Assembly: GCA_001938485.1 (NCBI GenBank)
Contig: MQRK01249281.1
Span: 1-55,806 of the forward strand
Reading direction: 5' to 3'
DNA length: 55,806 bases
Source of the DNA: Girardia tigrina
Lineage: Eukaryota
Shown: piece after piece, positions 7,901 through 35,177 of the stretch
Position numbering within the stretch: the first letter of the stretch is position 1
How the letters are laid out: each line of letters opens with the position of its first letter
The notes under the pieces: generated by a model
Database searches by the model: none
What the model saw: only the letters and a program-made list of their open reading frames with translations
What the model was told of the DNA's origin: nothing
Position numbers and translations under genes: made by a program

Positions 7901-10900
7901 TTGTATTGGCCTCACTAACTACTATTGCCTAATTAATCACTGAATTCCTCAAATTAAAAAATTCAATTTTAAAACTTTTCATTATGTACCTCATCGGTGT
8001 TGTCGGTGCGTGAGAATTTAAATAAATTGGTCTAATACAAATTAAATTAATTACAAAATATGAAATCAAAAAAATCTACGTTTTAAATAAACAAAAATTT
8101 TGATGCGTTGCGAAAATGATTTAAAAGAAACACGCTGGTAAAAAAAGATACGGCGATTATTATTAATAAATATTGTATTAAAATATATTTCTCAAATTGT
8201 TTCCGATTCTTAATCTTATTTGATTGTATGACTGATCTTATCATGATTGTTGTTTGGGTGGTATCACCACGCACCTAACAACGGTAGTTAAATTTCCTTT
8301 CTTTGATAAATTGAGATTGAAATAAATTGAAAATTAAATTATAGGGTAGAATATTTCACTGCGATTTAATTGAGATTAAAATTAAATTTAATTAAACTTA
8401 GATAAAAATTGTAAACTTAAAGTTTATGTTAAATAAATGTTTTAAAAGTGAAATAAGAAAATGTTTAAAATCAAAATAGAATAAGATGTCATATTTATGA
8501 TTCATAGTACCACGAAAAATGCGTGTACGACAAAAGCGCGCATCAACAAATACGCTAAAATGAATCATGAATTCTACTTCAGGCAGAATTTTAGTCCAAT
8601 CTCTGCCTTTTTTGTCTTTCAATGATATGTAGATGGCATCTATTATTGTCCTAAATTGTCTTTCAATCTGCCCATTACTAGAATGATGATAAGGACTAGA
8701 GAATAATATTTTACTTTTACAATTTTACGACATAACTAACATAAAACCAGAAAAAGAAAAAAGGAAAATTAAAGAAATAATAATAAAAATGAACAAAATA
8801 CATCTAGAAGTCTCCAAAATTTTTCAATTACTCTATCTGTATTTCAAGAAACGTTTGATAATATTTTCATTTAGATGATGAAGAAAGCGTTGATTTTAAT
8901 GAACATTTAAATATGTGTTTGTAAGTGTTCTAATTTTAAAATATTATATTAGTTAATATATCTAACAATAAAATCATTTATATGAGTATTTACATTTTAT
9001 TCAATCACCAAATATTTAAAAAAATATAATTGTTGATGAGGAATTATTAAATTTCGAAACATGTTTAATAATCATTTTCTATTAAAGGCTTTAACTACTT
9101 ATATACGAGGGATATGATATAACAATAAAGTTTTCAGTGTGGTCATCCATGGAAACATTTCCCCAACTGTTATGATTTAGTTTTAAAACACAGTAATAAT
9201 TTTTTAAAATTAATCAGTTATTAATTTAAATATAATTAATGTGTTTGCCATGTATGATGACAATGGTCTTCATTTTACTATGTCACTCAATTCTAGACAA
9301 TTTAATACGACTTACCTATTTAATGTCTGTAGTGATACAATTTCCTATAAATAATCAAAGCATTCAAATAATCATAAATTCAAATATCATATTTATTTTA
9401 AATTAATTAATATTCATTAACCCGAATGGGGCCACCGTCCTCTTAAAAGAACACTACTCAAATATTTTTTACATCAATTTGACGACTCAGCAATAGTTGC
9501 CACCGTCCTTTTAAAAGGACACCCTATTACAAAAAGACCGTATGAAACAAAAAATATTTTTTAATGTAGAACAAGTTATTTAGATATAATTAACCAGAAT
9601 TAATATCAAAAATTCATTTTTTCTAAAGGAAATAGTTTCGGCCCCATTATGGTTAAATTATATTTCCTGAGAATAAAAATTCACTGATAATATCTTAATC
9701 AAACGGACTAAACCGTTAATCATTCAATGATCTGTGAAAACTAAATAAAAAAGCAATTTTCAAAATAAATCAAATAATGCAAAATTAATGAAGCGTTGTT
9801 TGAATGTGCTAATTTACACATAGCAAATTCCAAAGTTAAAAAAAACGAATGAACGAGAGATGAAAAATGGTGGTGTTATATATTTTCTGTGTAAATAAAT
9901 GTTATACTTAAACTATTCGTTTGTCTTTTTTTATATGTGGAAATCAATAAATTCGTAAAAAATAAATTTGTACAATAAATTTTCAAAGTTGAACAATATA
10001 TTGTGATCTAAATTTATAACCCGATAAAGGGGTTTACAACGCTGTTAAATTAAATATAACAATCATGAATTGACTTCTTTTGACTTTAAATTCGAATTCA
10101 TATCTGACATTTTTTTAAGGTTTCACGTAGAATGTTTAGATCAAAACCAAAGTATGAAAATGATGAAAACGATTCGTTCATGAAAAAATTTGGTCTAACG
10201 CAAAGCAATGAAGATGTTTTCGATAAAAATAAAAAACCAAACGAAAGTCAGAAGAAAAGTTTCAAAGAGTAAATTTGAGTAAATTACGGTATGAATTAAA
10301 GAACCCTGATTTTAGATCATACATAACATTTTTTATTGATAACAACAGTAATGGCTATTATTGGTGGTTGGGAGTGATCAGTGCTATTTCTATATATAAC
10401 ATCATTCTTTTACCGACTCGTGCGGTCTTTCGGGAAGTTCAGAATTCTCACACGATCGTTTGGCTTGTTATAGATTATTCTATGGATATCTTCAATGCTG
10501 TCGATATGTTCGTGGGATTCCGAACTGGTTAATTATTATTATATTTAATTTATTTTATAACGAGTCTCAATCATTTTTCCAAAATCTTCAGCTAACAAAA
10601 AGGTCAATTTCTCTAAAATAATTTATAATTTATTTTATTCTTTAGGATTTTGATATTCACAAAGTAAACACATTTTAATTTTAACCCTTTCTCCCTCTGA
10701 GACACCAATAGCGCATATAACTATCTGTCACTACCGCCAACAAAATTTGTCTAATTGAGACTGGAAAATATCCAATAGTCTTTGTAGTGATCACTTATTT
10801 CACTTCCCCTTTTCTCTGCACCTCCTCACTCTAACAAAAGAATTTTCATCATATCAAAATACACATTTAACGAATTTATAAAATTCAATTTAATCAAAAC

Positions 10901-13900
10901 TATTAATATTAAAATTTCACTTTATTAAATTTAGAAAACTTTTCTATTTCACATTTAAATTTTTTTTCCTCATTAAAAAAAAGAAATTTTTTTATCAGTT
11001 ACAAATTTTTTATCGCTAAAAATTTTTTTATTAAATTGAATTTGCAGAACTAAAATTAAATTGAGCTGCAGAACATCAACAAATTCCGACCCGATAGACA
11101 TCACTTCGTCAATCGCGTCAGCGATAATAAATTGACTTTTTGCGAAGCGTGTAATCAAGAACTGATCACGATGGGCTCGGTCAATTCGTGCATCAACTGC
11201 CAGATCGTGTGACACGACCAGTGCGTTAAGAACGCCAAGTTTCATTGTCAGAACAACCAATTGTGGATCCAAATGTTTATCACGGAACGATCTACCGGGT
11301 GATCGAATGAACCAACCATTGCGTCGGTTATGGTAATATCCGGGACAAATCAGGTTAATTGATGCCACTTGGTGCTTGATTCGCCCTATTCTTCAGCACT
11401 TGGCATCTATAGTCTTATATTTGTTATGTGAGTTCCAAAGGTTTATAAATCCCGCAATATATAGATATTTTTACCAGCCATCTTATTATATTCATAAGGA
11501 GTTAAACAAAGATAGATAACAGTGCTTAGCCGCTATAGCAGCCTTATGCGATGAAATAGTTTAACAAACAATGACTGAAATCAGAGGAAACTCTGACGGT
11601 AGACTAACATGATTCTGATATTTACATGAGTAAAGGGACGAAAGACTAGTTGAACGATATAGTAGTGTCTAATGTGCACACAATCTGATCAACATCATGA
11701 TTATAATTAATCAAAAATCTTTGGATTAAGTTTTTTATTTGTGGAACCAGTTTACTGATTGCAATTCTATTGGGTTGACAACTAATTAATGGCCGACTTC
11801 AGTTATAGATGTCTCTTATTTCCATTTTTATGATATCAATATTAAGAACATTTAGACAAGTCGCGTTTGAACTATTATTACAATCAAATTTAGAGTCATT
11901 ATGATTCTCAGAAAGTCTTTCATCGTTTGTCATCATTCTAATTAGTTTTCTTATTTTTCTTTTTAATCATGATTATTCGAACAATTTTTCTAAATGATTT
12001 TTTTTAAATATATTAATTATTATTAATTAAAAATAATAAATTTTACCATTTCTCAATAAATCCCAAAATAATAAAAATGTCATCAAATTATTAAAAATAC
12101 ATTTAATTTAAATATTACCAAAAAATATTAAACTTAATTTTAATTGTTAAATTAAAAATATGAACTTATAAAATGATTATTTTAATTATGTTCGAATAGT
12201 CAATCACTTTAAATTTAAATAAAAAAATACCAATTTCCACCTGGGTGGGAGAATCACCATTCTAAATTCAACATACTTAAATCAACATACAACATCACTA
12301 CATTTACACATTCAAACAGTTTAAAATAATCCTCACAATCAATAAATATTATGAATTTTTTTCTTATATATGTTAGCTTTACAAATTTATTACTTACATA
12401 TTTTTTAAAAGTTTTTAAACATTTAAATAATTAATATACTAATCAATAATTAATATGGAGTGCTATATATTGCTTTATATTTCCGTAAAGGAAATATGTT
12501 GCACCCACCATATTGCCATGATCTCTCGCACCATCGGATTATCAATTATTTCAATCCCTGGACAACTCCCTTCGTGGTAAAACTTTCAATGATGACAACG
12601 CTATAAAATCTCACTTAAATAAATTTTTGACCCAAAAGGATCACAATTTCTACGACCTTGGAATTTTCAAGTTGTCAGAGAGGTAGCACAAGGTCATCGA
12701 ACATTGATTAAAGTTCATTCCAAGTAAAAACTCTGTTTCATTGAACAAATCGGAAATTACTTAGTTGCCAACGCAATAAATAAAACAGTTAACATGTCTG
12801 AAATGAGTTAGGACGGTTTGCAATTATTTATGAATTTTCGATTAAAGTACTTCCTTTAACCAAATATTTAAAAGACGTAAATTCATGTGTTAAGATAATA
12901 TTTATTCTAATATATTTATTTTGATCACATATTCTAAATTCGAAGGACTCATTAATTATTTGAATGAGTATATTGTTAAGTTGACATACTTCAATGACTT
13001 TAAAAGTTTTCTTTACATATTTCTCTTCAGGATACTTGGAACAAGGGTTGATCGTAACGGATGTGAGCAAACTGAGGCGAAACTATGTACTTAAATGGGA
13101 ATTCAAATTAGATCTACTATCCCTTCTCCCGTTTGAACTTTTAAGTATCATACCTCAAGTCGGTGGGCTACAATTTGTATTCTTGAGATTCAATCGACTT
13201 ATTAAATGCTATAAAATATTTACTTTTACTGATAGAACTGAAACAAGAATAAATTTTCCCAATATGTTTCGGATTAGCACGTTAATTTTCTATATTTTGA
13301 TTTTAATTCACCTAAATGCCTGTATTTATTTCTTTATATCAACGACGGTTGGTCTTGGTTCAGACGCCTGGGTCTACCCTCCAAGGTCATCTGATGGTAT
13401 CAATTCTACAACTGGAATCGATGTTCCTGATAGATGGAATGTGTTCCGTATAAAATATATCTACTCATTTTATTGGTCGACTTTAATATTAACAACAATT
13501 GCCGATATTCCACCTCCTGTTCACAACTACCAATACATCTTTATAACGGTCGATCTTTTGGCTGGAGTGTTGATCTTTGCAACAATCGTCGGAAATGTTG
13601 GATCAATGATAACCAATATGAACACTGCTCGAAGCGAATTTCAAATACAAATGGATAGTGTTAAAAGATATATGGAATTTCAAAAGATTGACAAAGATTT
13701 AGAACAAAGAGTTGTAAAATGGTTTGATTATATCTGGTCAAATAAACAATCTTTGGACGAAAAATCAATTCTTTCTACCTTACCGGACAAATTACAAGCA
13801 GAGATGGCCATTCATGTCCATTATGATACCCTTAAGAAAGTGCACATATTTCAAGTGAGCAATTATTATTATAAAACTAAAAAGAATTATTTTTGGAAAA

Positions 13901-16900
13901 TGAATTTTTCATAAAGTTTTGAATATCATAAGCATAGAAGTACTCCGTATACTACTTGTAGCGCAGAGTAGGCAGGTCAAAGGGGTATAAAGTCTCTATC
14001 GTCCTAATTTAGTAAACAATTTTATGTGATTTTTTAAATGAAAAAATGTACATTTGAATTACCAAGGAATGTTTTCATTTTTCTTCTTCATATTACCACT
14101 GAATGGATTCTATGGCGAATCCGAAGATTAAAGAATACATTAAATTTTCAGTGCTGATTATAATTTGTCATAATTTTAACATTTTCATGGTTACACTCTT
14201 CCTAAAAAGTCTATGGTAATCCCTTAAAATTTAAGCGTATGTTAAAAATTATTTGGGATGCATTACCTATCAACCCACAACTACCACTCGTAAATAAAAA
14301 ATCAATCAATTCTTTTCCAAAATAAATATCAACCCATTCAGAAAAAAATCACTGCTATCCAAAGACAAGAATCTAAAAGTTAAAAGATCGAAACAAAAAA
14401 ATATTAAATCCAACAGATTATGATTATAGATCATCGTCTCATAGATCAAAGTCTCATATTAGTGTAAAATGATTACTTGTATCCGTGGTGCGTAGTAACT
14501 AGCGAAAGCCACTCCGAAATTATTTCGCTAATTAACGGATATTTCCAAATAATATCCATATTCCAAATAATATCCATATTCCAAATAGTATCCATATTCT
14601 TAAAATATACTAATTACAACTATAGTAATAATAATATAAATAATCATGTTTATGGCAATAAAAATACGATATTTTTATAATTTTAACTTAAATAATTCAA
14701 TAAAATTAAATCCAAATACTATCCCTATTTTCTAAAAATTACCTCTTTAAACAAATTCTTTGGGGATACTATTTAATAGTATCCGGGATAGTATTTGGAA
14801 ATATCCGTTAGGTTTACTTAAGTACAGTTTTCTGGATAAATAAAAATAAGCTGGATTATAATTTTTTTGGTTTGTGTGATTTCACGGAATCGATTACATA
14901 ATCAATTATTTTCATTTTTTACAGGTGTATTAAATTCTTAATCAGGTTAACTGAACATGACGGTTAATTCATCGAAATAAATTGTCTATAAATATAATCT
15001 TAAATGGATGCATTTTGTTGTTAATAAAAAATTTCATTTGGATTAAAGCTTATTAAGATTCGTATTGTATTATCGTTTTCTTTATCAAACCGGGTACTTA
15101 CTGAACGAATGTCTATATTTGAGATTCAAATTTGTTTTTATTTTAAGTTATTTTTATATTTTAGTAATTAATTACTGTAATATCTACTTTAAAAAATGTA
15201 ATAATTAATTATATATTTTTTTATTTTAATTGCCAATTATTATTATTTATTATTCAGTATTTATTTGTTACTATAACTCATTAATGATTTATTTACTTAT
15301 TATATATTATTTTATACTATATATTATATATCATTATTTACATATTAATAAAAATCTAAAATAATATTAGCTTGGTAATATTATGGATCAATATTACCAA
15401 GCAGAAATAATAAAAATTTAAAAAATCGATAGCAGATAAATATTACTAATATATCTTATTATTGTCCAAATTTCGAAAAAAGAAAAAAAAGAAAAGAATT
15501 ATCCGAAAATATTCCTTTCAAAACGCAAATCAAATCAAGTAACTGAGAGAATTTATATGAAGACAAACACCGATTTAAGGTTTCAATAAATCTTTCAGAT
15601 AAGCCAATTCGAAAAGTAAGTAAGAAAACTAAAAGATACCAATACCTGTCAAAAAACAGTAAAAACTAAATAATAAAAAGTGATAAACCCGAAATATCGA
15701 ATATATCAGCCTAGTTTGACAAATATCAATCGTAAGAAAATAAAACTTAGCCAAACATTTGACTATAATCCTAGTACAGTTGAATTAAAGTAATACTATA
15801 TTATATTGTTATTGTCTCCTTTGACACTCTCCTCATATTTTACCCGTGACATTTATAAACATCTTCGTTTTTTATCTGTCCGTTGTACGTTTCGTTTTGT
15901 TAAATACAATTTTTACAAATTATTCCAAATATTATTTATATCAACAAGGATTTTGTTTTTAATTATTTTGTTTATTTCAGAGATAAATTCAGAAGACTAA
16001 TTAAACCTAGAATGAAACCAAAGTTTTACCATTCTTATATTGATTTATTTTTTATTTGTTAAAGCAAGTTAATAAACCAACATATCATGTACGTTTATTA
16101 ACTCGTTTTAAAATTAATAATTATTTTTTGAGAAGATTTATGTGAAAGTATAAAAATGAATTTCATTAATGTATATCAATTTAATATAAATATAATATTT
16201 TGTCTACCTAGGATTGAAGTACCTAATATTTAAATCCTAGTATTTTGTACTGAATTTTGATAATTTGAATACTTTGGAATAATCATTTTCTTGAATTTCC
16301 ATTTAAGTTCTAATTTGTTTTCCTTTGCAATAAATTTCAAGGTAAGCTATGCATTAAAAAATCGTTAAAATCCCAAAATATGTATCTTATTAACATCTTA
16401 TGTTCTATTTAACTTAAAATGTTTTTATTTGCATGTTACACATTTTTCCATTCTTTTTATCAGCTTACTTTCTATATAATACATTAAGCTATTAAGTATG
16501 AAATGTATAGATTTGATTCAAAAGGATTTATTATATTTCTATTCTTTACAATTATTGAAAGTATAATTCTGAAGCAGCGACACATATTTTCCATTTTATT
16601 GGTAACTCATTTATGCCTGTTACAAAGAAGCCTAGTGAATGAGAGCCAATGAAACAGCGAAAAGAATGTTCTACAGTCAATTGAAAATGGCATATTTTTC
16701 ATTTCAGATGTTGTCTATATTCTGGAAGAAATAGTAATTAGTCACAGCAAGGTCTGTCGAATACGTACCATAATTGATGGTTTCTAAATACAACTACACA
16801 TTATTTAATAGAGTCAATTTCACAATATGTGGGTGAGTATTATCATGCCATAATATTCAATATCTATTCACTCATATTCATTACACTAAGACTCTACAGT

Positions 16901-19527
16901 AATACATTTTCCAGGTTTATGAAGTTGTAATGGATGACACCATGAATAGTCCCCAAACTGTTACCATAAGATTCTTTTGATGAATACTTGATTTTGGACA
17001 GTACTTCAATAGGATGACTAGAATGTTATCTTTTGTTATGTGAAAGCAAAGAAATTTAAGCATCGAATCGATTTTGATTTGTTTCTCATTTAAATCATGT
17101 GGGACATATCTATAAAGTTATTTTACTTTGTTGATTTGGCGAAATGATCTAATATTGTTGGAAAAGAAACATTAAATACTGTTGCCAATTCAAGAGTAGT
17201 TTGCGATGCATCACTTTGCAAGCAGAAGAAATTAAAGTAATCATCATTCATTTTAGCTTCAGGTCTTTTACGTGGCTCATTTTTAAGCCTAAAATCTCCA
17301 GAAAGAAATTTAATAAATCAACGACTTACTGTACCTTTAGCTATGAGCATTTTTAGCAAACACTTCTATCAAGATACTTGCTGTTTGCATGGCGTTGGTT
17401 CCTATCAAAAACTCAAATTCCAAAATAACACAAATTTCAACTTATCCGTTCTTCTAAAAATATTAATTTAAAACATTGAAATTTAAAAGGCCATTGAAAG
17501 CTTTATTGTGCGCTCAAGAGTTATGATGTAATTTTTTCAATAAACAAAAATCCAATTCTGTTGTTACGAAATGCGATAAATATTTAATCATAAAACAATT
17601 ACTTAACAAATTTATGCATTTCAAACTTAATGACCTCTTATAAGCAACTTCATTTTTACAAATCATTTGTTCTGATGGTGACGGTTAAATAGTTCAATTT
17701 AATCAACAGAAAAATAAATTTTGATTGGCTTAGTAATTTTGATTAAAACAAATTACCATTTTTATCTAAAATTTGCTTATACTAATTCCTTTCTTTATTT
17801 ACTAAAACATTCCTGGTAATCTCGTTGTTAAGAGAACTCACACATTTGACAGAACATTTATTACATTCACAATTTTTATCATCTTTATGATGATCAACAG
17901 TAAGGCTTTCACTAGATTCAATCAATCAATTTTTTCAATATCTCTCATTATAATCTGAACTAACTTGAGAAAAATATTTTATTTAAAAATATTTACTTTA
18001 AATTTTATTGGCTGAAATAAAATATTTTTATAGTTATTTNNNNNNNNNNNNNNNNNNNNNNNNNNNNNNNNNNNNNNNNNNNNNNNNNNNNNNNNNNNNN
18101 NNNNNNNNNNNNNNNNNNNNNNNNNNNNNNNNNNNNNNNNNNNNNNNNNNNNNNNNNNNNNNNNNNTATAAAAATTAAATATTGACAATCCATCTGGTTA
18201 GGAGAGGCACAATCCCAAATCAAAATACAACATTTAAACATACAAAAACTACACAAAAACATCCACACACCAAATATTCCTCACACTCGTTTCCAAATAA
18301 AGTTGCCTCTTTGAATTTTAGTATTTTCCCTTCTTTTATGTACTTGCTTTCTTGTCATCTTGTCCGTGTCCTATCTCATTTTGCAATTTTAATCAACTTC
18401 TCATGATGCTATCGATCTGAAATTTTCAGTGTAGTTGTATTTTGCAATAACTTATCGATTGGACGTTCTTTCCAAATCGTTTGTCATCACACGATCAATC
18501 AGAATTAACAAAACAAATTGTGTAACAATTTTTATCTCACCAATCGATAAAAATCGACAAATAAAAAATCGTTTAATTGAATGAATAAGGCACTCAATAG
18601 AAAAAAGGGTTTTTTAATTTTTTTTAAATGTCTTTATATAATTACTAGATAAATTATTTATTTATAAGTTATTCATTTATTTTGCTAGATAAGTTATTCA
18701 TTTATTTTGCGTTGATTTATGAATATATTTATATTTTACGAGTTATTGAATCATTTATGAACTCGAACTTTCAATATTCGTTTTAAGTAGCACTTTTTTA
18801 TCTTACAAATGGCGTTCTTCCTTTAAACTAACCATCTACCAAAATTTTAAATTAGTAATGTAGTTCACTACAGTATATAAAACCTTTTCTCGCCTAATAT
18901 GAATGCAATTTATCTATTTAGGATTGTGAGCCAGGTTTGCTTGCAGAATTAGTTTTAAAATTGCGACTTCAAGTATTCAGTCCCGGTGATTATATTTGTC
19001 GCAAAGGAGATATTGGCAAAGAAATGTATATTGTCAAACAAGGAAAATTGGCTGTGGTTTCAGATGATGGGAAAACAGTTTTCGTGACCCTAAATGCTGG
19101 AAGCGTGTTTGGTGAACTATCTATTTTAAACATTCCGGGTAGCAAAACTGGAAATAAAAGAACAGCAAATGTAAAATCTATTGGATATTCTGATTTATTT
19201 TGCCTTAGTAAAAGTGATTTATGGGATGTTTTAGTTGAATATCCTGAAGCAAAAAATAAGTTAATGCAAAGAGGAAAAGACGTATTAAGTAAAGATAATC
19301 TGTTGGATCTAGACGCACTAGCAGAGGCAGAAAGGAAAGTATCCAATTCAGAAATGAAGCTTAAGAAACTCGAAAACGATCTCGAAACTTTATTGAATCG
19401 ACTCTCAAGGCTAAAAAATGAATATATATCGTCTCAACAGAAGTTTAAACATCGAATCACGAAATGTGAATCGCGAATTCAGTTTTCCATTGATGAACAA
19501 AACAAAATTGAAGAAATAAATTACTGA
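1769..19527 (+). CDS. CNGA: Cyclic nucleotide-gated cation channel alpha subunit (CNGA/TAX-4-like); spliced CDS join(1769..1906,10120..10268,10316..10527,13031..13854,18922..19527), 642 aa
   Basis: Exon lengths 138+149+212+824+606=1929 nt (643 codons), with GT-AG introns in compatible phases. Splicing rebuilds the CNG hallmarks FRTG|YLEQG and IFQ|[15 protein letters not shown]4 ([13 protein letters not shown]), pore helix YWSTL, S6 [20 protein letters not shown] (FGELS..NKRTANV) and a C-terminal leucine zipper are present. Confidence 0.93.
2220..2445 (+). mobile_element. Degenerate Penelope-like element 3' fragment (GIY-YIG region plus tail)
   Basis: Aligns by eye with 23490-23580 (GTAATGGGTG.AA...ACAT.CATT.GAGA...TGTAAGAGAATCCA) and with the ORF end and CTGATGA region of the 23453-23921 copy. 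Confidence 0.65.
3006..3225. mobile_element. Tigger/pogo-type MITE
   Basis: TIRs TACACAAAAAAACATCTCTATAA ... TTATAGAGAGGTTTTACTGTA with TA ends. Confidence 0.7.
4490..5835 (+). mobile_element. Degenerate hAT transposon, same subfamily as 21480-24052
   Basis: [22 protein letters not shown] at ~5335-5400, and [17 protein letters not shown] at ~5770-5835. TAGGGGTTGTAAAC TIR-like start; many stops and frameshifts. Confidence 0.8.
7996..8284. mobile_element. Small MITE-like element
   Basis: Imperfect inverted ends GGTGTTGTCGGTGCGTG ... CACGCACCTAACAACGG around an AT-rich core. Confidence 0.4.
8550..8740 (-). mobile_element. Gypsy integrase fragment
   Basis: Minus strand [19 protein letters not shown]...[19 protein letters not shown], homologous to the integrase at ~34715-34850. 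Confidence 0.85.
9421..9652. mobile_element. TTAA-flanked (piggyBac-type) MITE
   Basis: TTAA|CCCGAATGGGGCC ... GGCCCCATTATGG|TTAA; internal palindrome GTCCTTTTAAAAGGAC. Confidence 0.7.
10120..10268 (+). CDS. CNGA: CNG channel exon 2 ([25 protein letters not shown]...)
   Basis: Acceptor ttttttaag|G. DSFMKKF resembles the CNGA N-terminal DSFLERF motif. Donor GA|gtaaat at 10269; a 47-nt intron (10269-10315) restores the frame into exon 3. Confidence 0.8.
10316..10527 (+). CDS. CNGA: CNG channel exon 3 (S1-S2)
   Basis: [11 protein letters not shown]...RAVF..W..DY..D...DMFVGFRTG. Acceptor ttttag|, donor G|gttaat. Confidence 0.93.
11072..11302 (+). pseudogene. Orphan C1 (DAG/phorbol-ester-binding type) zinc-finger coding fragment with an in-frame TGA, inside CNG intron 3
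   Basis: Frame from 11102 reads [48 protein letters not shown], which fits H-X12-C-X2-C-X12-C-X2-C-X4-H-X2-C-X7-C. Confidence 0.8.
11770..12776 (+). mobile_element. Internally deleted mariner element carrying a solo LTR insertion
   Basis: TA-flanked TIRs TTGGGTTGACAACTAATTAAT / ATTACTTAGTTGCCAACGCAA. C-terminal transposase [26 protein letters not shown] at ~12500-12700. Confidence 0.85.
11840..12337 (-). mobile_element. Gypsy solo LTR (TG...TA termini) with 5-bp TSD ATCAA
   Basis: ATCAA at 11835-11839 and 12338-12342. Reverse complement runs TGTGAGG...GTTCTTAATA. Confidence 0.88.
13031..13854 (+). CDS. CNGA: CNG channel exon 4 (S3-S6, pore, C-linker)
   Basis: Acceptor ttctcttcag|GA TAC TTG GAA; lies within ORF 12994..13914; donor CAA|gtgagc. 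Confidence 0.96.
14533..14810. mobile_element. MITE with 19-bp TIR and subterminal 18-bp tandem repeats
   Basis: TAACGGATATTTCCAAATA ... TATTTGGAAATATCCGTTA; TTCCAAATAATATCCATA occurs about three times. Confidence 0.7.
16480..17640 (-). mobile_element. Near full-length degenerate mariner element in CNG intron 4
   Basis: TIR cores ATTAAGTATGAAATGTATAGATTTG / CAAATTTATGCATTTCAAACTTAAT. Minus strand [36 protein letters not shown] and [17 protein letters not shown]. Confidence 0.82.
17826..18285 (-). mobile_element. Gypsy solo LTR (TG...CA) with 5-bp TSD CTCGT, spanning an assembly gap
   Basis: CTCGT at 17821-17825 and 18286-18290. Reverse complement runs TGTGAGGAATATTT...TTCTCTTAACA. Confidence 0.85.
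18922..19527 (+). CDS. CNGA: CNG channel exon 5 (CNBD and CLZ, stop TGA)
   Basis: Acceptor tctatttag|GAT TGT GAG CCA. Encodes [43 protein letters not shown] and a coiled-coil CLZ. Confidence 0.96.
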
Positions 19528-21221: not shown

Positions 21222-23452
21222 TGTGTGTGATTTTCGTTAATAAATTTTTGCAAGAAATTATGATTTATAATCTTGAATGAAACATTATAGAAGATAACAT
21301 CGATTCAACCAACAAGATACATCAACTTAAATAATTACCGAGCAGAGAATATTTATCTTGAACATATTTATCTTGAACATATTTAACAAACATATTTATC
21401 TTGACCAAATGTAGAAATCTTATGAAACATTAGTATTTAAAACTGAATGTTATGTAACAAGAGGCTTAATTTTTTTCTTTGATAATGTAGTAAGCCCGAA
21501 GAAAGTACAACGCATTAACAGACTTGTCACTCAAAGAATTTCAAAGTTGTGTAATAAACAATCCTGCTGGAGAAAATGCTCTTTCCGTTTTTACAGAAGT
21601 TGGAGGGATCGTAAGAAGAGCATTGTAAAGCAAATCAAGACTAGGAGTACGATTCTCTGTTGCACAAAAAACATTGAACTCTTTTTCAATGTTTGATGAA
21701 ACATTCAATATTTTCTTGCTGGTAGTGGACGTTGTCTCGTGAATGAAGTTTTCCAATTTATCTGAAAGACTCTCTTCTCGCACAGGATTTGATTCCTGAC
21801 TCTTGCTTTCTTGATCATCATCTTCTTGTTCCCTGTTACTCTGGAAAAGCCTGGAAATGAGTTCTTTAGCCTTTTTTTTGCAATACTTCTTAAGATGGCA
21901 TTGAAAACAGGTCGTCTTGTTCTTTTAAACATTTTGGATCATGGAGAAAACGAAGTAAGCTTACAAGATCACTTTGTCTCCTTTCTGTGATTCTTTTTTC
22001 AACTGCTGATGTTATTTTTTCATGCAAGATGACTCACGCATTTCAAGTTGACTAAATATTCCATCGGCAGAAAGCAATGTTGAACCTTGACGACAAAGTG
22101 CTTCAATTCCCGATTTCCGTGGCTCCAAAGCACACTTAACATCTTCAACGAGCTCAAACTCACTCTCAGTTAAGTCCATCTCAGCTGATATGTCAACCAA
22201 AGCTTTGATAATTGCTTTTCGCAAGAAAAGAAATCACTCGACCATTGTCAACATGGAGCTCCATCTTGTCTTGCAATCTTTTAAAAGTGCAAATTCTTTT
22301 CCAGGCTTAAGTTTGACATATTTCTGAAGAATTTCCCTTTTTACTGGACTTTTTCTGAATAAGTTGACTAGTGAACGAACTTTTTTAATAACACTGCCAA
22401 GCTCATAAGCTAAGCTTGGAATTTTAACATCATTCTCATCAATATTAAAGCCATCATTATAGTTTTCATCTTCATTGTCCTCAGATTCATCATCAGTGTG
22501 CTCTTCCATTTGACTGAGAGCTACATGAGAATAAAGAACATCACAGACTGCAAGATGAATGGCATCAGCTTAGCAAAGTTGGTGTTCAAATGATGTTATG
22601 CGGCCTAGAGTTTTCATTACTGATGCCCCATCAGACACTGCACTGGCAATGGAAGATTCAATGTCAAGACCAAAATCAGCCAAACAATTTTAAAGAATGG
22701 AAAGGCCTTTTTCGACTGGAAAGGAGCCTGACATTCTTATTTTTCCAAGATTTTAATGATTGCTCTTTTCATGAACATTTACATTCATGTATCTCCGGTT
22801 CCTCGAAGAAGTAAATTCATCAAGTGAAATGCAGAAACGGTGAGCTTTTTCCCTCTTCTGCACAAGCTCCTGTCGAATTTCTTCTTCAAAGATATCACGT
22901 TGATGATGAACCAGTGCCATTCTTATTTATTCATCTTTTGGAAGTTTTAAGCCTTTGTCCAGTAAAGCAGATCTTATGAATTTACTGTTACAAATAGTTT
23001 GAATAAAGATTCCATCTTGAGCAGCAAGCTTTGAAACAATTTCTTCTAAGGAGACCAATTCCTTTTTGAAGAATGCTGAAATACCTGACTGATATTTTTG
23101 TTTCTTATAAGATAGTTCTTTATCTTCATTTTTCTTCTCAAAAATATTGTATTTTTTCTGGAGATGACGTGATAATCTACTTGTACTCCATCCTTTGCAA
23201 GATATGATTTTTTGACATTCCAAGCACATGGCCTCAACCTTCATTTTATCGTTCGAAGTATTGCTAAACAAAGGACTGAGTTTGTTGAGCTGCCACTTTT
23301 GGCTTAAAATATTTTACATTTCAAATATTAAAGAAGTATGTTTATACTTACAAAAACAGTTGAATACTGCCTCATAATCTAATTTTAATTAAAATAATCA
23401 ATATAAATAATAAATTAATGAGATAATTAAACTTAATTAGATAACTAAAATA

Positions 23453-24909: not shown

Positions 24910-26009
24910 CTGTCAAGTCCATTTAATATTAAAATGGCGGCATTTAATAATGTCTTTTTTCAAATTAATAATGAGATTTATGTCTCATAGCTCTACAGAA
25001 GTACTGTATTGAGCTTTTTTATGCTTTTTTATGCTTTACTATGGTAAGATTTATTATTATTTAATTAAAATATTAAATTATAAGTAATTAAATTGTAATA
25101 AAAATAAAAGAAGAGTAAAAAACTGCATTTAATATACAAAATCTTGTTTACAAAGGCCATTTTAATCACCGAAAATGTCTTCTCTTGCCATAGAGAATCA
25201 CAAATATTTTCGACAATATGTGAAATATTTGGTGAAATCCCTATAATCATCCTTTTCTATGGCACTGGAGATAAACGATTTCAGAGCACAAATTCTTTCG
25301 GGCTGCGACATTGAAAGAAATCCCGATGATGTCGACAGTTGACCTCTGACATCTCCTTTTAATTTAGAAAAGACTGCCTCTATGGGGTTTAAAAATGGTG
25401 AATATGGAGACAAATACACCATTGTGTGTAACGAGGTGATTCCCTTATGAATTGGAGCGTTGTCCTGTATGAGCCGGTAGGGAATATAGGGGTCAAGCAC
25501 AGCATTTACTTCTTCGATAAATTTCTGGTAGATGTAACCATTTACACTACCAAGAACCAATTGGTGATGGATCAAACCGCTTCTTCCAATGGCCATAATT
25601 AATAATATGTTTTGGCCTCGGTTTGATGGGACTGTGATGTTGCATGGAGTCCATAATATTTACCTTTCATTTGGCCTACGGGTCCTGAGATTAAACCCGG
25701 TTTCATCGATGTAAATGGTTTGGCTCAATAACCAACCTCCAGTTATATAATTGTAAGAATAATGATATCTGGATTATTTCACAGTTGCGGAATTGCGTTC
25801 CGCAACATAACGTATTTGTGTGTCGAGTATGTGTGTTTTGGAACACAACATGTTTTTCTATAGTTAAGCTTATTATTAACTGGATGTTTTTATTATTAAA
25901 TGGACATATTGTCTTTTTTTTCTGTCATTTCATTGGTTAATCATTTTATTTTTAGATTATATAAATTATTATTAAGTGGACATCTCATATTATTAAATGG
26001 ATTTGCTAG
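24910..26009 (-). mobile_element. IS630/Tc1-like transposon (internally deleted, DD27E) embedded in (TA)n
   Basis: Motifs IYIDETGFNL, LIQDNAPIH and YLSPYSPFLNPIEAVFSKLK. TIRs CTGTCAAGTCCATTTAATA / TATTAAATGGATTTGCTAG with TA flanks. Confidence 0.88.
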
Positions 26010-32236: not shown

Positions 32237-35177
32237 TTGAAAGGACGATCAAATGTAGAATTTCATATAAAAGATGAAAATGTTCAGGGCCTTTTAGATA
32301 CAGGAGCCCGAGTGAATGTCATTAAAGCGGATTTAATCAAAGATATGAAAAATATTGAGATTAGAGAAACAAGAAAGCGTATTCACTGTGCGAATGATTC
32401 AGAACTTGTAAATTATGGAACTGTACAATTAAAGGTGATAATAGAAAGGGTACAGAAAACAATAGAGTTTTATGTTGTCAAAGAAATAGATCTGGAAATG
32501 ATTGCTGGTATAGATTTTTTTGGATAAATTTGGAATAAAACTGAAGAAAGAAGCATCAAATATCGATAGCATATTGGCAATTAGAGATAGCCCTTCTGAT
32601 GAAGATAGATTAAAAAGAATAAGAGAATTGTACAATACTACAAGTGAAAATGAGCTAATGGAACTTTTAGCAAAGTGCAGATCAATATTCATGGCTGATA
32701 AATGAGATATTGGAAAAACTTCGTTAGCCAAACACAATATAGAAACGCATGGAGAACCAGCACTAGTAAAACCGTATAGACAACCGAAACATTTTGAAGA
32801 GAAACTAGATGATATTATAAAACACTAAGAAGAAAACGATATTATCGCAAAGTGTAGTTCTCCTTGGAACTTTCCTTTAGTATGTGTTTTGAAAAGGAAA
32901 AGCAAGATATTCGAGTATGTGTAGATTTTCGTCAGTTAAAATAAAATAACCGTCCGACCAGCATTTCCAATGCCAAAAGTTGAAGATATGTTGAATACAC
33001 TAAATGGGCAAAATACTTTAGTACTATCGATTTGGGAAACGCTTACCATCAAGTAGAATTAGAAGATGAATCAAAAATTAAGACGGCATTCTCAACAAAG
33101 TGCGGTCAATACTGTTTCAAGAGGATGCCTTTTGGAATTGCTGCGGTCCCAGCAACTTTTCAGGAGCTAATGGTGAAGGTTTTGGGAGATTTGAATTGGA
33201 AAGAAGCAGTCGTATATTTGAATGATATTTTGATTTTCGCAAAAGATAAGAAAGAACATCTTCAAAGAATAAATGACGTATTTGAGAAGATTAAACAATC
33301 AGGTTTGAGAATAAATCCGGAGAAATGTCGATTTTTAGTAGAAAAGACTAAATTCTTAGGATATATCATAAGTAAAGATGGTATTGAAACAGATAAATCA
33401 AAGATTGATGCGATAAGCAAGTTTCAGAGCCCATCATGCATTAAACATTTACGAAGCTTTTTGGGCTTGACAAATTACTACAGAAAATTTATAAAGGATT
33501 ACGCAAGATATGCAAAAGTATTGGAAGGTTTATGTGGTAAAAATAAGGATAAGAAACTGATCTGGACTAAAGAATGTGATGAAGCCTTTCAAAAACTAAA
33601 AGACTGAATGATTAAAATTCCAATTTTGGCATATCCTGATTTTTCCAAAGACTTCATTCTTGATACAGATGCAAGTTTTGATACGATATGCGTGGTGTTA
33701 TCACAGAAAGACGAATGTGGAAGAGAAAGGGTGATTGCGTTTGGATCACATAAAATGAATAAACATGAACTATTGCATTGCAAGGAAAGACCTACTTGAT
33801 ATTTATTATTTCACACAACATTTTAAACATTTCTTGTATGGAAAAAGATTTTTGTTGCGAACAGATCATAAAGCTATTACGTTTATGATGACAACAAAGA
33901 ACCCTATCACACCACAGTTCCAAACATGGATAAATTTTCTGAGTAGTCTTGACATGAAAATGGAATATCGAAAAGGTGAAAAACATTCAAATGCTGAGGT
34001 AATGTCATGAAATTCGTGCGAACTATGCAATCAGTGTCAAACAATGCATGAAGAGGCCAAGAAAGGAAAGATTAAAACAAGAATACTGACATTAATTGAA
34101 GAATCAGATGGTTTTAAATGACAGAAGAATAATAATGAAATAAAACAAATAATCGAGGCCATAAGTAAAGGCAGAGCGAGAAAATGGGCATTAAAGAATG
34201 ATATCGTCATAAATCAAGATAATAAATACTGGATCCCAAAGGCAGAACGAGCAAATTTTGTTGAAGAAATGCACAAATTGTTGTATCATGCAGGTTGTAA
34301 AAAGGTCTATAACTACCTCCGAGATGATTTCGACATCGAAAATATGAGAGAATTTATAAAAGAAATCGTTCAAAGTTGCATAAATTGTCAGAAAAGGAGG
34401 ACATTAACAATCAAAAAGAAAGAAAAGAATATAAAGCAATTAGCGGATGAACCTTTCCAGAAAATATACATTGATTTTTGTGGACCATTCAAAAGAAATA
34501 TAAATGGATGTCAATATATATTTGCAATAATTGACCAGTTTAGTAGATATGCAGCAGCAAGTCAAGATGAAAAAACAGTTGGAAAATTGTTATTTGACAG
34601 ATGGATATGGAAATTCGGTCCACCAAAAGAAATCCACGTAGACAGAGGAAAAGCATTGGAATCAGTTTTGATCAAGGACATGGCGAAAAAATTTTAAGTT
34701 GAGGTATTCTATTCGAGTCCATATCATCATAACATAAATGGAATCGTAGAAAGACAGTTTCGCACGATCAGAGATGCTTTGAATATTAGAATGAAGGATG
34801 GAGATCATAAAGATTGGACAGAAGTCTTATCAGAAGTCGAGTTTATGTTAAATAGTACTGTACAAGCTACGACATGCATGTCACCGACCGAGATAGTATT
34901 TGGAAGAAAACTGAGATATTGGTGGAAAAGCAATTACGAAGATAAGAAAAATTTGAAAGTAGTTGAACCAAAAACAGAGACAAGAAGGATTTTTGAAGTC
35001 GGAGACAAAGTATTAATTAAGAAGGAAAATGTCTCAAAAGAAGATGACCGTTACATGGGTCCCGCAACAGTGGTGAAAAGAAATCATGAAAGAAGTTACG
35101 AGTTACAGCTTGAAGATGGAAGAAGTTTTATTAGAAATGTTGAATGGCTAAAGCCATTTAAATCGAGGGGGATGTGA
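32237..35177 (+). pseudogene. pol: protease, RT, RNase H, integrase (disrupted)
   Basis: LLDTGA protease; RMPFG and YLND (mutated YxDD); FILDTDAS; integrase H..H..C..C, IDFCGPF, HVDRG and NGIVER. Multiple stops and frameshifts. Confidence 0.93.
35165..35172 (+). promoter_or_regulatory. Polypurine tract
   Basis: GAGGGGGA immediately before the 3' LTR TG. Confidence 0.8.

Follow-up and report, generated by a model that had tools for sequence, protein, structure and literature searches.

Classical CNGA subunits of CNG channels are marked by a set of three domains, Ion_trans, cNMP-binding and CLZ (PMC9803222; Lagman et al. 2022), and their filter is represented in human CNGA3 by T365-I366-G367-E368 (PMC10761061); beneath the acidic ring, Ca2+ occupies sites formed by the Ile and Thr backbone (PMC10761061, a review). 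K+-type and CNG pores are thought to need the filter Gly for their backbone shape, and the bovine CNGA1 G362C mutant barely opens, its single-channel openings having been described as rare only (PMC2229457). An alanine scan of CNGA1 takes in G362A, its outcome being given in Figure 7 and supplements (PMC2717697), and this outcome would bear directly on the function proposed below; a result for G362A or G367V was not found in the literature, which was covered as text without figures, and G362 has no entry in the supplement of PMC5758780. In planarians, a cng gene has been described as expressed in photoreceptors (PMC11696554), and the filter of Girardia multidiverticulata gir_mul_cng reads TTVAEVPGP in supplement 4 of that paper. 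Literature searches for planarian cng, G362 and TIAE/TIAD/TVAE, run mostly on open-access text without figures, turned up no account of an animal CNG channel with an Ala filter, and the words 'pore' and 'selectivity' are absent from the main text of both a paper on CNG evolution and the planarian cng paper PMC11696554.

A CNGA-type gene with such a filter is present in the window, by which we mean the whole AT-rich stretch of 55,806 nucleotides of DNA from the dugesiid planarian Girardia tigrina that was analysed. Its features, with bovine CNGA1 numbering where indicated, are as follows.

10120..10268, plus strand: first exon located in the window, with an AG at 10118-10119; contigs aligned from 10118 onwards extend a further 26-240 letters in the 5' direction.
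10269..10315, plus strand: 47-base GT..AG intron (GTAAAT..TTTTAG), with the joint 10268>10316 present in runs X1, X8 and X13.
10316..10527, plus strand: exon encoding S1-S2, covered by spliced contigs, with a weak Pfam Ion_trans match (E 5e-4, below the cut-off).
10528..13030, plus strand: 2503-base GT..AG intron with repeats, its joint present in X1, X8 and X13.
13031..13854, plus strand: exon encoding S3-S6, the pore loop and the C-linker (Pfam Ion_trans, E 6e-21; human CNGA3, E 8e-98).
13492..13518, plus strand: selectivity filter and outer loop TTIADIPPP (bovine CNGA1 359-367), with Ala362, Asp363 and Ile364, and with Pro366 kept.
13531..13533, plus strand: Gln ahead of S6 (bovine 372), at a site that is acidic as a rule and where 470 aligned rows have Glu in 452 and Gln in 10, and the orthologues P0123 and P0124 have Glu.
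13555..13557, plus strand: Leu at the S6 position of CNGA1 Phe380 (Leu in 7/7 planarian-clade rows, Phe in 14/14 other flatworm-clade rows).
13855..18921, plus strand: 5067-base GT..AG intron placed from the sequence (GTGAGC..ATTTAG, frame kept).
18922..19527, plus strand: last exon, with the cyclic-nucleotide-binding domain (about 18970-19236), the C-terminal leucine zipper (about 19261-19473) and the stop (Pfam; CNGA1/2/3 alignment).

Joining the four coding exons yields a frame of 592 codons uninterrupted by stops, and this frame, its three GT..AG introns and the spliced contigs agree with the initial annotation, which had described an otherwise intact CNGA-type gene. The first in-frame ATG lies at 10132 and the frame is open from 10120 to it; since the contig letters 5' of 10118 do not fit positions 10000-10117, there is probably another exon upstream of 10120, which could lengthen the N-terminus. 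The last exon contains cNMP_binding (E 5e-18) and CLZ (E 4e-17), so that together with the Ion_trans of the pore exon all three domains of the classical CNGA set score above the Pfam cut-off. The binding cassette FGELS..NKRTAN and the C-helix KDNLLD, including its Asp, align with those of CNGA1 and CNGA3, and the residues that we take to bind cGMP (the cassette Gly-Glu and Arg-Thr and the C-helix Asp) are intact. The presence of CLZ sets the gene apart from CNGB, which is characterized by a TIGG filter and no CLZ, and the pore exon scores 330 bits against CNGA3, 229 bits against CNGA4 and 129-142 bits against CNGB. The predicted monomer of the pore exon (AlphaFold, pLDDT 81) has CNGA1 and CNGA3 as its best fold matches, with an RMSD of 9-10 A to the solved chains; as it provides no backbone angles, it is uninformative on filter geometry.

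The repeats of the second intron, at 11060-11255 and 11800-12780, have matches to numerous high-abundance contigs of each of the four runs, and fragmented mobile elements lie downstream of the gene at 21541-23313 (minus strand), 25198-25659 (minus strand) and 32984-34697 (plus strand). They comprise hAT-type pieces, with zf-BED above the cut-off and the hAT dimerisation domain just below it, a DDE_3 transposase piece, and reverse transcriptase and integrase pieces of an LTR-type element.

The motif on which the initial annotation had focused is real: positions 13492-13518 read ACA ACA ATT GCC GAT ATT CCA CCT CCT, which encode TTIADIPPP followed by VHNYQY, and this segment aligns without gaps with TTIGETPPP of human CNGA3 (TTIGETPPPVKDEEY of CNGA3). 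The canonical T-I-G-E, as given for CNGA in PMC10761061, is thus T-I-A-D in the window gene. In bovine CNGA1 numbering the substitutions are G362A (13501-13503), E363D (13504-13506), T364I (13507-13509) and E372Q (13531-13533); the alignment to human CNGA3 places the first two and the last as previously described, while T364I is an extra change that had been missed. In the 470-row alignment, the pore-helix anchors Y352, T355 and L356 and the prolines P365-P367 are retained in the window gene. In CNGA1, Phe380 packs on pore-helix Leu356, and the Leu found at position 380 is common to the whole planarian clade.

The codons were compared with assembled contigs, as distinct from raw reads, of runs X1, X8, X13 and X16, whose RNA nature is a guess that the GT..AG joints fit. 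The pore exon is covered in all four runs, and a single contig spans both upstream introns in three of them (X1, X8 and X13); in X16 the exons lie on separate contigs, with the first intron skipped. The X1 contig shows no differences from window positions 13030-13855, and none of the eight differences listed, out of nine, for the X13 contig changes the motif. X16 differs at 64 of 826 letters, as in an approximately 8 % divergent species, and its changes within the motif (13503, 13509 and 13518) are all synonymous, preserving TTIADIPPP. Over 13411-13821 the 35 changes listed for X16 comprise 29 synonymous and six non-synonymous ones, corresponding to a dN/dS of 0.044, with six more differing letters unlisted, probably near contig ends. 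Runs X22 and X23 gave short matches only, to the TIGD-type paralogue (L008). The identical X1 contig and the residues preserved in X16 thus bear out the motif, and the window gene is intact, spliced and conserved under purifying selection.

The rarity of the filter was assessed among 503 unique fetched sequences; 500 of them cover the pore, and removal of long K+-type rows and rows with gaps in the motif left 470 of CNG type. Vertebrate CNGA3 is strongly represented in this set. At position 362, 454 rows have Gly, nine have Ala and seven another residue, and Ile364 occurs in six. Among representatives of 50 % clusters (118 of 150 rows kept as CNG-type), Gly is present in 106 and Ala in five, and the combination GD occurs in 30, whereas AD is limited to one, a mite protein. 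Judged from these alignments, Asp at the filter is ordinary, as had been suggested for some invertebrate CNG paralogues and as the TVGD of CNGA4 also illustrates, and Ala is rare but recurrent; the suggestion that Ala for Gly is unusual therefore stands, and TIAD-type filters have not turned out to be common. Outside the planarian clade, independent Ala-for-Gly filters are found in P0343 (TTIAEVQPP) and P0355 (TTVAEVPEP), which form one long-branch pair and both carry Leu380, in P0317 (SLMAEMPKP), from Macrostomum and belonging to another subfamily, and in P0310 (TLVADLPRP), the mite protein. Leu380 is present in seven of the nine Ala362 rows vs 68 of the 461 others; with about four independent origins of Ala, two of them accompanied by Leu, this covariation is only a hint.

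The history of the changes was followed in a 27-row tree of the pore exon, built with the 15 filter columns removed, with no HCN root and with CNGA4 not included; a 60-row quick tree agrees with it. The window gene groups with the flatworm CNGA clade, apart from the TIGD-type L008, and nests among flatworm CNGA rather than showing orthology to CNGA4, which is itself outside the tree. A planarian clade (support 97/95) unites the window gene, L002, L003 and L004 with three unnamed proteins, P0123 and P0124 (both TTIAETPTP, 78 % identical) and P0131 (TTVAEVPAP), which were treated as planarian by tree position alone; none of the best 120 matches of each protein-collection search was a named planarian protein. 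The clade is divided into the window gene with P0123, P0124 and L004 (100/98) and L002 with L003 and P0131 (100/100), and eight parasitic flatworm rows, all TIGE, form a separate clade (100/99). The seven planarian-clade rows also have in common residues that are rare in other flatworms at pore-exon positions 35, 38, 85 and 101 (Glu instead of Asp and Ser instead of Tyr, both in S3, then an Ile, and a Phe in S5). All members of the clade have Ala at the filter apart from L004, which carries Gly; the parasitic flatworms and the Macrostomum CNGA keep Gly, so that among the flatworm CNGA rows examined Ala is confined to the planarian clade, in accordance with the lineage-specific character that had been proposed.

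Gly>Ala and Phe380>Leu would accordingly have arisen in the planarian line after its split from parasitic flatworms, and they probably predate the divergence of the planarian paralogues. A single origin of Ala is not settled by the tree, on which two changes are needed (one gain with a reversion in L004, or two gains), and a topology with L004 outside an Ala-only clade is not rejected by the AU test (p-AU 0.096). Asp363, Ile364 and Gln372 are confined to the window gene and its close relatives, and Glu>Asp, Thr>Ile and Glu>Gln are best read as later changes of the window gene only. P0123 and P0124 combine Ala with Thr at 366, where the window gene has Pro.

The genome (G000; 1.43 Gb in 255,254 contigs, and possibly incomplete) contains four CNGA-type pore exons, with the filters TTIADIPPP (window gene), TTVAEVPGP (L002), TTIAEVPRP (L003) and STIGNAPPP (L004). 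Ala is thus present in three of the four CNGA genes, the fourth being TIGN, and more distant CNG subunits carry TTIGDLPPP (L008) and TSIGNNPPP (L018). The CNG family is well known and the window gene is a CNGA member of it; the Ala filter is a wider feature than had been reported. L002 matches gir_mul_cng at 49 of 50 pore-region residues, compared by eye, and an exact search of the eye-gene file of PMC11696554 with four short words, which is weak across species and line breaks, left the window gene unmatched. Four distinct CNGA-type binding-domain exons match the four pore exons in number, leaving no orphan exon that would suggest a missed canonical gene; the fourth of them we infer to belong to L004, and this presumed L004 exon is identical on three contigs. 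A canonical TIGE CNGA was found neither in protein searches of the genome nor by a genome-wide pattern search, in which LTT[IV]GE.P.P had no matches and its Ala version three, although an intron inside the motif or the incomplete assembly could hide one. The idea of a canonical CNGA partner in this genome was rejected on the outcome of these searches. Over the pore exon, the window gene is 60 % identical to Schistosoma CNGA, vs 58, 56 and 51 % for the other paralogues, and by this measure it is the least diverged CNGA paralogue of the genome.

The window gene is likely to encode one of the main pore-forming subunits of a non-selective cation channel that is gated by cGMP and in which external Ca2+/Mg2+ block is kept and Ala is tolerated in the lineage, an interpretation from sequence comparison that we hold with moderate confidence. 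In such a channel, cGMP would bind the intact binding domain and open the pore, the acidic ring, now Asp, would draw ions in, and the backbone carbonyls of Thr, Ile and residue 362 would hold them. The Ala methyl may pack behind the filter and stiffen it, which would retune conductance, open probability or block, with selectivity not being switched. Since a canonical CNGA was not found and Ala is also present in the eye cng, the Ala subunits probably carry current themselves. With respect to the acidic residue, E363D was the sole wild-type-like mutant among 11 expressing E363 mutants of CNGA1 (PMC2717697). In CNGA2, E340D keeps block by Ca2+, with a Ki of 47 uM at -80 mV as in the wild type, and by Mg2+, block being stronger at positive voltage and the gating constant lower (PMC2233693), and in a NaK chimera Asp bound Ca2+ approximately tenfold tighter (PMC3082925). 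Glu>Asp is therefore the mildest change among the published mutants, and loss of block is not predicted; by analogy, block is expected to be intact and perhaps stronger. CNGA1 F380L shows normal gating (PMC2699107), and the exchange of Pro366 for Thr weakens Ca2+ block in Drosophila CNGA (PMC4555469). Several points speak against ordinary function: Gly is kept in nearly all of the 470 CNG-type rows, CNGA1 G362C opens only rarely (PMC2229457), the equivalent Gly65 is the pivot on which the filter of NaK2CNG flips (PMC4555469), and CNGA1 T364A inactivates (PMC5758780), position 364 being changed in the window gene too; moreover, the combined effect of four substitutions in a single pore loop may differ from what the single mutants suggest.

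A rival explanation, which we consider unlikely, is that Ala forbids the glycine backbone geometry, so that the filter would be rebuilt and would favour K+ over Na+, alter Ca2+ flux or impose strong voltage dependence. In KcsA, L-Ala is not known to be tolerated at the first Gly of TVGYG, and the position changed in the AND pore triplet of Arabidopsis CNGC2 is presumably equivalent to that of the CNGA filter Gly. Such a rebuilding is made conceivable by the correspondence between the filter Gly and that first Gly of TVGYG (TVGXTPP chimeras, PMC3082925), for which D-Ala can substitute in KcsA, and by Gly65 of NaK2CNG, the equivalent of Gly362, which serves as the hinge on which the filter flips (PMC4555469). 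Furthermore, in AtCNGC2 the GQN>AND triplet is accompanied by a very low permeability to Na+ (PMC7830781, a review), and mutations around the CNGA1 filter give voltage gating (PMC2717697). However, high K+ selectivity depends on four sites in line, more than a filter of CNG length offers (PMC3082925), and the window gene retains the acidic residue and the pore-helix anchors. Ala also arose at least three more times (P0343/P0355, P0317 and P0310) and hence seems tolerated, and a K+-selective photoreceptor CNG channel would be a large change, of which the available literature passages give no hint. The same idea can be extended to dugesiid planarians as a group, in which the replacement of the filter Gly in the CNGA subunits they rely on, including the photoreceptor channel, would have produced a rebuilt filter peculiar to them in selectivity, block or voltage dependence, and TIAD, TVAE, TIAE and TIGN would form a series tuning Ca2+ flux; this sequence-based proposal is conceivable but doubtful.

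It is also quite unlikely that the window gene encodes a CNGA4-like modulatory subunit that functions in heteromers only, where it would tune Ca2+ block or ligand sensitivity. Its filter Asp recalls the TVGD of CNGA4, Asp363, Ile364 and Gln372 are gene-specific by comparison with the orthologues P0123/P0124, the gene encodes a leucine zipper that could serve assembly, and four paralogues leave room for a division of labour. However, the genome searches revealed no canonical CNGA to be modulated, the window gene is the paralogue closest to Schistosoma CNGA and has a short branch (0.11), and CNGA4 itself is a vertebrate duplicate (PMC9803222). The absence of a normal partner from these searches and the low divergence of the gene make it hard to see it as an odd modulator of a normal CNGA, and the special subtype or modulatory partner that the initial annotation envisaged finds no support in a genome in which Ala is the prevailing state of CNGA and extends to the eye cng. 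A better candidate for a modifier or an unblocked subunit would, from its sequence, be L004. This paralogue (G000:C204333:13441-13836; L050:1371-1997) has no acidic residue in its STIGNAPPP filter, an altered S6 and a branch of 0.62.

An assembly error in the motif or a decaying duplicate was rejected and has a negligible probability, for although the assembly is fragmented and contigs stand in place of raw reads, the X1 contig is identical, the motif changes in X16 are synonymous only, dN/dS is low, the frame is intact and the contigs are spliced.

None of the planarian CNG phenotypes in the literature could be assigned to an Ala gene. In PMC5055394, supplement 1 lists HCN4 as the best match of the gene called 'CNG1', which is thus probably an HCN channel. 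In PMC5536891, the 'CNGA3-like' primers correspond to the TIGD-type L008 with five mismatches each, in frame and in the right orientation, which suggests that this RNAi targets a TIGD-type gene rather than a true CNGA; for the 'CNGA3' primers of the same paper no placement was found.

A lineage that carries Ala in its main CNGA genes under purifying selection provides a ready-made test of the need for the filter Gly, and of which neighbouring changes, Phe380>Leu for example, make Ala tolerable. Because the eye cng has the same Gly>Ala change, the question also touches on what CNG channels do in the rhabdomeric eyes of planarians. If the Ala channels turned out to function as CNGA channels usually do, the outcome would be a modest one, namely that Gly is dispensable in context.

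Among the described systems, the best named matches of the window pore exon (59-61 %, with trematodes at 60-61 %) are the flatworm CNGA3-like proteins of Fasciola, Paragonimus, Schistosoma and cestodes, which have the same domain set and form the neighbouring clade in the tree. However, TTIGETP.P and Phe380 are present in all of their rows examined, whereas none of the four planarian CNGA paralogues is canonical. The gir_mul_cng gene (PMC11696554) belongs to the planarian clade via L002 and, compared by eye, has Ala at the filter Gly and Leu380 as the window gene does, although it is an orthologue of L002 and keeps Glu. Vertebrate CNGA1 and CNGA3 and C. elegans TAX-4 share the fold, pore helix, C-linker, binding cassette, C-helix Asp and CLZ of the window gene and differ from it in having TIGE in place of TIAD; nematode TAX-4-type rows (P0245) carry Val364 and Leu380. 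Vertebrate CNGA4 has in common with the window gene the Asp at the acidic filter site, but it keeps Gly, originated in the vertebrate line (PMC9803222) and is a weaker match to the window exon than CNGA3. Arabidopsis CNGC2 provides a natural example of Ala in the pore triplet of a conducting cyclic-nucleotide-gated channel (PMC7830781), although it belongs to the plant CNGC family, which is distant from animal CNGA, and it is reported in that review to exclude Na+.
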